From the NCBI RefSeq assembly GCF_003018255.1, contig NZ_CP027440.1: a stretch of 64,000 bases of DNA; one strand, given 5' to 3'. Origin of the DNA: Escherichia coli (GTDB lineage Bacteria; Pseudomonadota; Gammaproteobacteria; Enterobacterales; Enterobacteriaceae). Positions within the stretch are counted from its first letter, which is position 1. Each line of letters starts with the position of its first letter. This document shows positions 1,308-52,195 of this stretch, in pieces. The position numbers and the translations under genes are program-made. The notes beneath the pieces were generated by a model that saw only the letters and a program-made list of their open reading frames with translations, did no database searches and was not told the DNA's origin.

Positions 1308-4529
<3,222 letters not shown>

Positions 4530-4582
4530 TAGCGTGTCATGGCGGATATTTTTCATCCGCTAATTTGATCGAATAACTAATA

Positions 4583-28713: not shown

Positions 28714-28802
28714 GTGTAGGCCTGATAAGACGCGGCCCGCGTCGCATCAGGCAATCGGCGCAAAATTGCCGGATGCGGCGTGAACGCCTTCTCCGGCCTA
28801 CC
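28714..28802. repeat. pair of inverted REP elements filling the djlA-rluA intergenic region
   Basis: gtgtaggcctgataagacgcggcccgcgtcgcatcaggc and tgccggatgcggcgtgaacgccttctccggcctacc. Confidence 0.75.
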
Positions 28803-35698: not shown

Positions 35699-35862
35699 TG
35701 CCGGATGCGCTTTGCTTATCCGGCCTACAAAATCGCAGCGTGTAGGCCTGATAAGACGCGTCAGCGTCGCATCAGGCGGTGAATGCCGGATGCGCTTTGC
35801 TTATCCGGCCTACAAAATCACAGCGTGTAGGCCTGATAAGACGCGTCAGCGTCGCATCAGGC
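35699..35862. repeat. two tandem BIME units (85-bp period), each a REP plus inverted REP
   Basis: Unit tgccggatgcgctttgcttatccggcctacaaaatc(g/a)cagcgtgtaggcctgataagacgcgtcagcgtcgcatcaggc occurs at about 35699 and 35784. Confidence 0.85.
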
Positions 35863-44530: not shown

Positions 44531-44565
44531 TTTGCACCTCAAAAAAGAGTGGCAAAGGACTTGAG

Positions 44566-44658
44566 AAGGAGCCTCAAATCCCTTCGCCGGCGTTATCCGG
44601 ATCAGGTTCGACGGGTATTTTCTCAGCGCACGCGTCTGCGTGGCACCCCGTTGAGAAC
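44566..44658 (-). ncRNA. sroA: TPP riboswitch (THI element) in the thiBPQ leader; region of the SroA sRNA
   Basis: Minus strand reads ...ggggtgccacgcagacgcgtgcgctgagaaaatacccgtcgaacctgatccggataacgccggcgaagggatttgagg..., carrying the conserved CUGAGA and ACCUGAUC.GGAUAA.GCC.GCG.AGGGA thi-box motifs. Confidence 0.85.
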
Positions 44659-44693
44659 GGCGTTAGTGTAGTGATTTTGTTATCAACCAGCAA

Positions 44694-46349
44694 TCATGGA
44701 TCCGGCGGCGCAAACCACGCTGATTTAAAATCGAACCAGCCGAGGGTATTCATACGCAGGCCGCGCATACTGCGTTGCCCCTGAATGATCAGCCAGTGGT
44801 GGATAAGCGGCACCATTGCTTTGCTGGCGACCAGTTGCTGGCACCAGTTCGCCAGGTTTATTTCGCCATTGCGCCAGCGGGCGGCGTCGGCTTGCCAGTC
44901 GATCGGAATACAGTGTTGTAGCAGCGGCACCTCGCACAGGTGCGCGAATAGCGAAAAATCCAGCGGCAGCGTAAAGTTGGCGCTGTTAAGCCAGATATCG
45001 CTCTCGATCTCTCCTTCATGCCACTGATCGTAGCTGATCTCTTTGATTTCCAGCGTGACCTGGTGACTTGCCAGAATCTGCTGCATGATCCCGGCAATCA
45101 CCCTATGCTCACTGTGATCCTGATAAAAGGTCAGGGTGAGGCTTTCCAGACCAGCCGGTTTTTCGCTCTTTATGGTGCGGGTATGGTGCCAACGGGGAAG
45201 CAGCCCATAGGCCGGAAACCACAACTGCTGGTACTGTTCCTCGGCGAAATAAACCAGATTGGTCGGCGAAAGCACATAGCTTATCCAGTCTCTGACTTGC
45301 TGATTCGCCCCGCGATGGGTACGGCTGTCGAACAGTAAATAGTAACAACCTTCTTCAAGGCGGCTTTCAATCTCTTTTTCCTCGTCTTGCGGTCCTTTCA
45401 GCATCAGGCCTCCCGCGGGGTCATCAGCAATTTCCGGCAAGACCCAGACGTTAACTTCGTCGATTAATGCCCGATAACCAAAGAAGTCGTCGAATGCCTG
45501 AATTTTCAGTTGATTGCTGCTGTTGCGGATCACCGCATAAGGACCCGTTCCGATGGGATGGCTGGCAAAGTTGCTGAGGGTTTCCCATTCGCGCGGCAGG
45601 ATCATCGCCGGAACTTGCCCCAGCAGTAACGGTAACCAGCGGTCCGGTTGCGTGAGATGGATATCCAGCGTCCAGGGCGTCGGCGACACAATGTCAGCAA
45701 TATGCGAATAGAGCGGCAGCGTATTGATTCGTTTTAAAGAGGCGATCACGTCGTCCATTTCCAGTTCACGACCATGATGAAAATGGACTCCTGGACGCAA
45801 AAAGAAACGCCAGTGAAGCGGTAAAATTTGCTGCCAGTGGTGGGCGATGTCCGCTTCCAGTTCCCCATTTTCCTCATTTATGCGCGTTAGCGAACTGAAG
45901 ATTTGCCGGGCGATATGGGTTTCGGAACGACGCAATGCACTGCCGGGCAGCAGATTACGCAACGGACGATAGTAGAGAACGCGCAGGATGTGCCGCCCCT
46001 GGCGGAAGCTGCGTCCCAGATGAGAAACCAACATTTGCCGCACAGCCGCTTTGTCGCCAACCAGTTGCACCAGTTGATCGATACGATCCTGCTCCAGCAG
46101 GTCCTCTGCTCGCTGTTGCTGAAGCGCCAGCCCGGTATAGAGGAATGTCAGACGCGAGCGTTTGCCGCGCCCGACTTCCGCTTCCCACGTCAGCCAGCCG
46201 CGATCCTGCATGGTGTTGAGCAGGGTGCGCATATGACGACGCGAGCAGCTCAATAACGCTGCCAGTTCGTTGAGCGTCGTGTCCTGCGATTTACCCTCGC
46301 AGCATTGCCACAGGCGGATGAACTGTTGTTGCAGACGAGCAGATGGCAT
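44694..46349 (-). CDS. sgrR: transcriptional activator of sgrS (solute-binding-protein-like domain with N-terminal HTH)
   Basis: ORF 44694..46370; start taken at [33 protein letters not shown] (551 aa). Confidence 0.93.
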
Positions 46350-46416
46350 AAAAGGGGAACTCCTGCGCAAAAGACAGCAATTTTATTTTCCCTATATTAA
46401 GTCAATAATTCCTAAC

Positions 46417-46646
46417 GATGAAGCAAGGAGGTGCCTCATGCGTCAGTTTTATCAGCACTATTTTACCGCGACAGCGAAGTTGTGCTGGTTGCGTTGGTTA
46501 AGCGTCCCACAACGATTAACCATGCTTGAAGAACTGATGCAATGGGAGGGGAGTCATTCTGACTACTGATTTGCGGACATCATGTGTGACTGAGTATTGG
46601 TGTTAATCGCCACGCCAGCAGTGATTATCTGCTGGCTTTTTTCTTT
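46417..46646 (+). ncRNA. sgrS: dual-function small RNA SgrS (glucose-phosphate stress)
   Basis: Begins gatgaagcaagg...; contains the sgrT ORF, the conserved ptsG-pairing region (gtgtgactgagtattggtg) and a terminal hairpin gccagcag-tgattat-ctgctggc plus T-run. Confidence 0.85.
46438..46569 (+). CDS. sgrT: 43-aa peptide encoded within SgrS
   Basis: C-terminal 43 aa of ORF 46270..46569, MRQFYQHYFTATAKLCWLRWLSVPQRLTMLEELMQWEGSHSDY, preceded by aggag. Confidence 0.85.
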   Translation: MRQFYQHYFTATAKLCWLRWLSVPQRLTMLEELMQWEGSHSDY

Positions 46647-46676
46647 TTGGCGATTGAGTGCCGGACGGTGTACAAA

Positions 46677-48693
<2,017 letters not shown>

Positions 48694-51358: not shown

Positions 51359-51404
51359 GGTTTGGGTCCTTGTCTCTTTTTGAGCGCCTCGCTTCGGGCA
51401 TAAA

Positions 51405-51433
51405 AAAACCCGCGCAATGGCGCGGGTTTTTTG
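51405..51433 (-). terminator. leu attenuator terminator hairpin (cccgcgc-loop-gcgcggg flanked by T runs)
   Basis: GC-rich stem-loop followed by a U-run on the minus strand, between leuL and leuA. Confidence 0.8.
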
Positions 51434-51450
51434 TTTGACTGAGTGCTGAC

Positions 51451-51537
51451 TTAATTCTGAATGCCGCTCACCAGTCTACCGCGCAAAGAAGATGCGTTTA
51501 GTAGTAGTAGACCGATAAAGCGAACGATGTGAGTCAT
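51451..51537 (-). CDS. leuL: leu operon leader peptide (four consecutive Leu codons)
   Basis: Last 28 codons of minus ORF 51451..51642: [28 protein letters not shown]. Confidence 0.85.
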
Positions 51538-52195
51538 TAAATCAGCTCCAGATGAATGCGATATGCTTTTAGAGTTACTGGATACCAAAACGGATGTCAA
51601 CCCTGATGCAACAAAAACGTCCAGCCAGCGTGAGTTCTGCATCCGTCAAATTAGCTAATTGTGCTGCGGTGGTTAAAACAAGCGATATTAATTTCTGCTT
51701 AACCACCGCCGCTTTTCATCGGTTGACATATTTCAGAATAAATTTTTGCATCTAATCGACGAGGGAAAGGGGGATAAAATGCACGCGTTACAAAACCTAT
51801 CCTGATGATTTGTATTGAATTATATGTATTGCGAATTTTTTGATATTCATTTGGTGAATATTATTGATCAATTAATGTTAAGAATTAAAACATTAAACAT
51901 ATAAATTAATTATTAAAAAAGCACATTTAATCCATTTTGTGGATGATTGAGTATTCGTGGTAGTTATGATTAGATTGTTTTCGCAACAAAAACATTATGG
52001 ATTATTATGCTGTGGTAAATGACGCTTTCCACGGCAATGGATTCTGTTTTTATCAGAACCCGTATCTTTATGTTTTCCTAATTTTACTCATTTTCCTTTT
52101 TCTTATTTTATATGCATGATAAATCATATTCTCGAGGATTATTTCTCTGCATTCCAATAAGGGAAAGGGAGTTAAGTGTGACAGTGGAGTTAAGT
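51538..52195. promoter_or_regulatory. AT-rich leuL-leuO intergenic region (divergent promoters)
   Basis: About 660 bp with long A/T tracts (e.g. ttaatgttaagaattaaaacattaaacatataaattaattattaaaaaag); this locus is a known H-NS-silenced region. Confidence 0.6.

Follow-up and report, generated by a model that had tools for sequence, protein, structure and literature searches.

The C-terminal tail of SgrT differs between two haplotypes of the Escherichia coli sgrS-leuD region

The small RNA SgrS carries within it an open reading frame for the protein SgrT, and the question raised by the sgrS locus described here is why an SgrT that matches the K-12 protein over most of its length should end in a different tail. 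The locus lies in a stretch of E. coli DNA of 64,000 nucleotides (contig NZ_CP027440.1), which we call the window and whose numbering is used throughout. In the scheme we favour, SgrR would induce SgrS under sugar-phosphate stress, the 3' seed of the RNA would pair, aided by Hfq, with ptsG and other mRNAs, and its 5' part would be translated into SgrT, which would block the PtsG (EIICB-Glc) transporter. Our analysis makes it very probable that the window holds a normal, presumably functional sgrS/sgrT locus with a common CFT073-type allele, that the SgrT tail is a weakly constrained appendage and that it is unlike K-12's because the chromosomal block to which it belongs exists in E. coli as two old haplotypes that do not recombine.

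SgrS itself is of full length. It matches the whole RF00534 model (1-232 of 232) with 221.8 bits against a gathering score of 37 (E=3.5e-62; Rfam covariance model), folds with a predicted minimum free energy of -81.3 kcal/mol (z=-3.4) and is divergent from sgrR, in the same arrangement as annotated in strain 104 and CFT073. The SgrR encoded here is 97.6% identical in amino acids to K-12 SgrR over residues 1-551 (tblastn) and, between the sgrR start codon and SgrS +1, a single substitution separates K-12 from the window. To judge by the K-12 literature (PMC2760817), this interval would hold the promoter and the SgrR-binding region. The features of the locus are as follows.

44694-46349, minus strand: sgrR, gene of the SgrS activator (551 aa from the RefSeq-type ATG at 46349), divergent from sgrS
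46350-46416, no strand: sgrR-sgrS intergenic control region, putative promoter and SgrR-binding region by homology
46417-46643, plus strand: SgrS sRNA, 227 nt
46425-46433, plus strand: sgrT Shine-Dalgarno sequence AAGGAGGUG, its GGAGG 6 nt upstream of the AUG
46438-46545, plus strand: sgrT codons 1-36, the conserved core ending ...LMQW
46546-46569, plus strand: sgrT codons 37-43 (EGSHSDY) and stop, the variable tail
46578-46603, plus strand: seed (base-pairing) region for ptsG and other targets, CATCATGTGTGACTGAGTATTGGTGT
46614-46648, plus strand: Rho-independent terminator and Hfq-binding module, GCCAGCAG-7 nt loop-CUGCUGGC, then U6-C-U5 (terminator scan and Rfam 3' hairpin)

Within the 5' part of SgrS, upstream of the seed and behind its own Shine-Dalgarno sequence, sgrT (46438-46569, plus strand) runs from an ATG at 46438 to a TGA at 46567-46569 and is intact over its 43 codons, the product being MRQFYQHYFTATAKLCWLRWLSVPQRLTMLEELMQWEGSHSDY. 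A sequence-only reading of the window had already described this ORF as intact and as having a good ribosome-binding site, a description borne out by the start and stop codons, by the strong Shine-Dalgarno sequence, by the RF00534 match to the RNA around it and by a match of the protein to Pfam PF15894 (SgrT; 50.0 bits against a cut-off of 27, E=2.4e-13, residues 3-37). The Shine-Dalgarno sequence AAGGAGGUG is presumably a 9-nt match to the anti-Shine-Dalgarno sequence of 16S rRNA. PF15894 rates both alleles alike (49.6 bits for K-12 SgrT), while neither the window protein nor that of K-12 was matched in NCBIfam, a library without a usable HMM for this family.

That the C-terminus differs from the K-12 version had been claimed in the same reading, and translation of the MG1655 reference locus (b4662) confirms it: K-12 SgrT ends ...TMLEGLMQWDDRNSES and the window protein ...TMLEELMQWEGSHSDY. 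The K-12 tail given there agrees exactly with this translation, so that a misquoted reference is rejected as the source of the difference. Rather than being identical on alignment, the two proteins differ by seven amino acids (residues 32, 37, 38, 39, 40, 42 and 43) and are the same over residues 1-31 and 33-36, so that the thirty N-terminal residues read as conserved are indeed so. The same holds for the ptsG-pairing sequence at 46578-46603, which is identical in K-12 and in CFT073, and the two seed residues whose mutation abolishes ptsG regulation in SgrS (PMC2760806) are both G in the window (G176 at 46592, G178 at 46594). A frameshift as the origin of the window tail is rejected, since the alignment of the two alleles has no indel and their stop codons coincide. 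At the DNA level, codons 1-31 are the same as in K-12 (0 of ~18 synonymous sites differ) and only 3 positions differ between the sgrR start and sgrT codon 31; codons 32-43 have 12 nucleotide differences, 10 of them in codons 37-43. According to the multi-species alignment, E32G is confined to the K-12 lineage and the synonymous CAA at codon 35 to that of the window.

The window variant is a known one. An identical protein, WP_001248768.1, is named 'glucose uptake inhibitor SgrT' by RefSeq both in CFT073 and in strain 104, whose DNA matches the window at 100% from 46380 to 46660, and the CFT073/O157-type SgrS, 88% identical to K-12's, was described in 2009 with 'EcCFT' as a distinct entry in the SgrT alignment (Horler & Vanderpool 2009, NAR 37:5465, PMC2760817). 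The significance that the sequence-only reading attached by implication to the tail variant is thus not supported, the allele being common (~40%), RefSeq-annotated and long published. CFT073 SgrS differs from the window's at 3 of 227 nt (one in the leader, two synonymous), shares its seed and terminator stem and likewise has no setA downstream. Between its sgrS and leuD, however, CFT073 carries IS200C, where the window junction is clean; the transposase gene of this element lies at 4078-4536 of the retrieved CFT073 locus. K-12 MG1655 (SgrS/SgrT, b4577/b4662), for its part, shares with the window the lengths of RNA and protein (227 nt, 43 aa), the promoter-proximal region, codons 1-31 and 33-36, the seed, the terminator stem and the divergent sgrR, and is unlike it in E32G and six of the seven tail residues, in diverged spacers and terminator loop, in a U8 tract instead of U6-C, and in having both a GC-rich hairpin at the ribosome-binding site that limits SgrT synthesis and a downstream setA.

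What, then, could a tail of this kind do? We propose that SgrT activity sits in the core, residues ~3-36 ending LMQW, and that the seven residues beyond W36 would be a weakly constrained appendage. In an alignment of 25 SgrT sequences, twelve residues are invariant (F4, Y8, F9, A11, T12, W17, L18, L30, L33, M34, Q35 and W36) and all of them are present in the window, while no column is conserved after W36 and tail lengths range from 1 to 25 residues. The multi-species alignment that the sequence-only reading had proposed as a check therefore ends in an absence of conservation past W36. Salmonella and Citrobacter SgrT (40 aa) conserve the core ...QRLKMLEELMQW and have E at residue 37 as in the window, but their tails are shorter (EATD, EVTA) and setA is kept downstream. 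The SgrT of Citrobacter sedlakii seems to end at E37, right after LMQW, and would be a natural near-tail-less form. Among the lineages with a window-type tail, species differ from one another at 1-2 of the 7 tail residues, per residue roughly double the rate seen in the core, which suggests that the tail is weakly constrained but not free. In support of a dispensable tail, SgrTs with unrelated tails complement E. coli, that of Salmonella being functional there (PMC2760817, PMC2760806). SgrT-3HA is reported to retain full function and EIICB-Glc to recruit SgrT-GFP (PMC3901232), both tags being C-terminal to judge by the construct names. From the identity of the core and from complementation by more distant homologs, we infer that the window SgrT would inhibit PtsG as K-12's does; a search of the accessible literature found no experiments on this exact allele, although the CFT073 type was aligned in 2009.

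In the multi-species alignment, the allele boundary falls directly after the W36 codon, and from there onwards codons 37-43, the spacer from stop codon to seed, the spacer from seed to terminator and the terminator loop are all heavily diverged, with seed and stem untouched. Divergence continues beyond sgrS through the following features.

46644-46676, no strand: setA-less junction, the sgrS terminator being directly followed by the leuD stop codon; in K-12 a 1179-bp setA lies there
46677-47080, minus strand: 3' part of leuD within the divergent block, its right edge being approximate (between ~46880 and ~47080)

Identity of leuD to K-12 is 82-88% over the last ~100 nt of the gene, then patchy and then 100%, and its synonymous divergence from K-12 falls accordingly, from a dS of 0.53 (codons 151-201) via 0.38 (codons 101-150) to 0.077 (codons 1-100). 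Since divergence spans the tail and reaches into leuD, the variable tail forms, from 46546 on, the leftmost part of a diverged haplotype block within which the setA indel lies. We reject gradual, relaxed drift within E. coli as the main source of the tail difference: the onset after W36 is abrupt, the divergence goes on into leuD, codons 1-31 have 0 synonymous differences and the window-type tail stays stable from one Escherichia species to the next. A dN/dS analysis of the ORF, another check proposed by the sequence-only reading, is underpowered with 7-12 codons, and its ratio for the tail would rest on ~6 synonymous sites, so that we give counts only (8.5 non-synonymous and 3.5 synonymous changes between the haplotypes); what it brings out is a recombination-type boundary and not a steady drift of the tail. 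To judge by these patterns of divergence, the block probably arose by homologous recombination or introgression.

With an RNA that is at once message and regulator, an alternative scenario deserves thought in which the sequence after W36 is shaped mainly by what SgrS needs for its own folding, for access of Hfq and RNase E and for seed spacing, the amino acid changes being by-products. Both the Rfam consensus and minimum free energy folds pair the start-codon region with codons ~32-37 as well as the 5' end (GAUG..GCAAG) with UUGC...CAUC just past the stop codon, and the paired nucleotides are kept in both alleles where their unpaired neighbours differ. No compensatory pairs came to light within the tail codons, however, the folds of the two alleles are similar in energy but not in local structure, and the whole block, including the coding sequence of leuD, has diverged, for which haplotype replacement suffices. 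To our minds, RNA constraint as the main force is therefore improbable.

How the two haplotypes are distributed was profiled with a 281-nt query around sgrS (window 46380-46660) against 5426 complete E. coli genomes. The locus was found in 5399 of these and falls into two classes, 2158 genomes with 95% or more identity to the window and 3241 with 80-95%. A window-type tail together with the sgrS-leuD junction is present in 2157/5426 genomes (~40%), whereas setA is present in 3241 and the K-12 tail, terminator and setA start are physically contiguous in 3242 (~60%), at an identity of at least 99% in 3240. Linkage is complete: the K-12 tail always stands beside setA, the window tail always goes with an sgrS abutting leuD, and recombinant configurations are absent from the 5399 genomes with the locus (2157 + 3242 = 5399). 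The exceptions are secondary events, among them the IS200C of CFT073 and, in strain HH97, damage to setA. Hardly any variation exists within the K-12-type block, and the window-type one is more diverse (836 genomes at 99% or more, 1318 at 95-99%). These data are consistent with a model in which E. coli would harbour two old haplotypes that do not recombine over the block that begins at sgrT codon 37, takes in the 3' end of sgrS and reaches into the 3' part of leuD, a K-12-type one with setA (~60%) and a window-type one without it (~40%), the latter being common to most other Escherichia sampled. We found no discussion of the linkage between tail type and setA in the searchable literature, and this strict linkage within a divergent block is the only mildly new element of our findings.

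For outgroups, a pattern scan with one genome per species gave 47 loci. Tails of the window type without setA occur in E. albertii (EGSDSDY), E. whittamii (EGSDSDY), Escherichia sp. E1V33 (EGSDSEY) and 'E. coli' SCPM-O-B-8794 (EGSHFEY), giving the pattern EGS[HD][SF][DE]Y, so that four of the five non-coli Escherichia lineages sampled have it and K-12's tail is the minority form in Escherichia. Only in Escherichia sp. MOD1-EC7003, among those sampled, are the K-12 tail (DDRNSES) and setA both present; identity to K-12 there is 99% over the block and only 83-97% per 100-nt window in sgrR. In every other genus sampled (Citrobacter, Salmonella, Klebsiella, Raoultella, Enterobacter, Pluralibacter, Siccibacter and Superficieibacter), setA follows sgrS. 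This suggests that setA beside sgrS is ancestral for the family and that, in Escherichia, a haplotype without setA became the common one. We reject the idea that the K-12-type block came from another genus: the 3' end of K-12 leuD is closer to each Escherichia species, the window included (87-91% identity), than to Citrobacter, Salmonella and other genera (76-82%). More plausibly, part of E. coli would have acquired, or kept, a K-12-type block that stems from a diverged lineage at the Escherichia level.

Complete linkage to the presence or absence of setA in 5399 genomes may also be seen as a sign of adaptation, the tails tuning the affinity or specificity of SgrT for PtsG or being co-adapted with whether or not the SetA efflux pump is there, so that the window allele would act otherwise than that of K-12. 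That the tail substitutions are mostly non-synonymous and that the window-type tail is kept with few changes across several Escherichia species would fit with such a role. Adjacency within one recombination block accounts for the linkage without selection, though, and tails that share no conserved position across genera and vary from 1 to 25 aa, together with heterologous SgrTs that complement E. coli and a tagged SgrT that works, speak against tuning by the tail. Moreover, most of the genera bearing setA have tails unlike K-12's. We hence regard adaptive tails as quite improbable and retain two old haplotypes with a weakly constrained tail as the preferred explanation.

If the tail is of little consequence, the leader upstream of sgrT may be of more. 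In K-12, a leader hairpin occludes the sgrT ribosome-binding site, as shown genetically, its weakening (C19/C21 to U or A) leads to more SgrT, and K-12 makes little SgrT (Wadler & Vanderpool 2009, PMC2760806). Only 3 of 15 E. coli strains have this occluding hairpin (Horler & Vanderpool, PMC2760817). Its K-12 sequence GGGGGUGCCCC is GGAGGUGCCUC in the window (46427-46437), and the predicted energy of the local hairpin is -1.8 kcal/mol in the window and -0.4 in CFT073 versus -6.0 in K-12. The Shine-Dalgarno match, too, is better in the window than in K-12. SgrT may thus be made more readily in the window than in K-12, because the hairpin occluding the ribosome-binding site is absent. Relative to CFT073, C20U (46436) is found only in the sub-lineage of the window. 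The idea that G13A and C20U form a compensatory pair keeping the hairpin is unsupported, since G13A stands alone in CFT073 and both leaders are predicted to form no more than a weak hairpin.

Carriers of the window haplotype do not all make SgrT. O157:H7 Sakai has this haplotype, with a window-type 3' end, no setA and 96.8% identity over the tail-to-leuD junction, but its sgrT start codon has changed from ATG to ATT (a mutation noted in PMC2760817) and no SgrT is made, whereas the window keeps its ATG. That sgrT in the window is likewise a decaying or non-translated ORF, its tail changes reflecting lost constraint, is most improbable: strains of the same haplotype did lose the start codon and K-12 itself makes little SgrT, yet here the ATG is intact, the Shine-Dalgarno sequence strong and the frame free of shifts and early stops, none of the 12 residues invariant in the family is missing, CFT073 and strain 104 encode the very same protein, and the inhibitory hairpin is absent.

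The allele as such matters little, its variable tail lying outside the conserved core that defines the family. What it does bring to light is that K-12 is an atypical E. coli at the sgrS locus, with a tail that is a minority form in Escherichia, an unusual translation-blocking hairpin and an extra setA. Conclusions drawn from K-12 on the share of SgrT in sugar-phosphate stress may hence not carry over to B2/D/F-like strains, CFT073 for example. One may go further and see in the SgrT tail the mark of an old two-haplotype system, in which the setA-bearing block would be an introgression from a diverged Escherichia-level lineage and in which ~40% of E. coli, lacking both SetA and the occluding hairpin, would lean in glucose-phosphate stress more on SgrT and less on efflux than K-12 would lead one to expect; we offer this tentatively, as a possibility that is rather doubtful at present.

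The terminator differs between the alleles as well. Its stem of 8 bp, GC-closed and with 6 GC pairs, is unchanged against K-12 and CFT073, while the U-tract at 46637-46648 reads U6-C-U5 in the window versus U8 in K-12, an unbroken run shorter than K-12's. We do not regard the interrupted tract as a defect, as the U6-C form is the majority across genera: most of the other genera have it on the same stem, and the U8 of K-12 is the outlier.

Upstream of the block, sgrR (44694-46349) is patchy against K-12, at 83-100% identity per 100 nt with the low stretches in its 3' two-thirds. This is above the divergence typical of an E. coli core gene and suggests further recombination tracts nearby. Where mechanically called longest ORFs begin at TTG codons, at 46350-46370 for sgrR (558 aa) and at 44531-44542 for thiB (331 aa), the extensions past the RefSeq starts (551 and 327 aa) are an artefact of ORF listing and reflect no sequence feature. 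The window is 100% identical to E. coli strain JNE112863 over 36000-60000. Beyond SgrS, the window has the following Rfam matches above gathering score, all of them expected in this part of the E. coli chromosome.

42-94: ES003 sRNA
28719-28798 and 35745-35810: naRNA4 (REP-derived), two elements
44561-44660: thiB TPP riboswitch (SroA region)
51402-51551: leu operon leader
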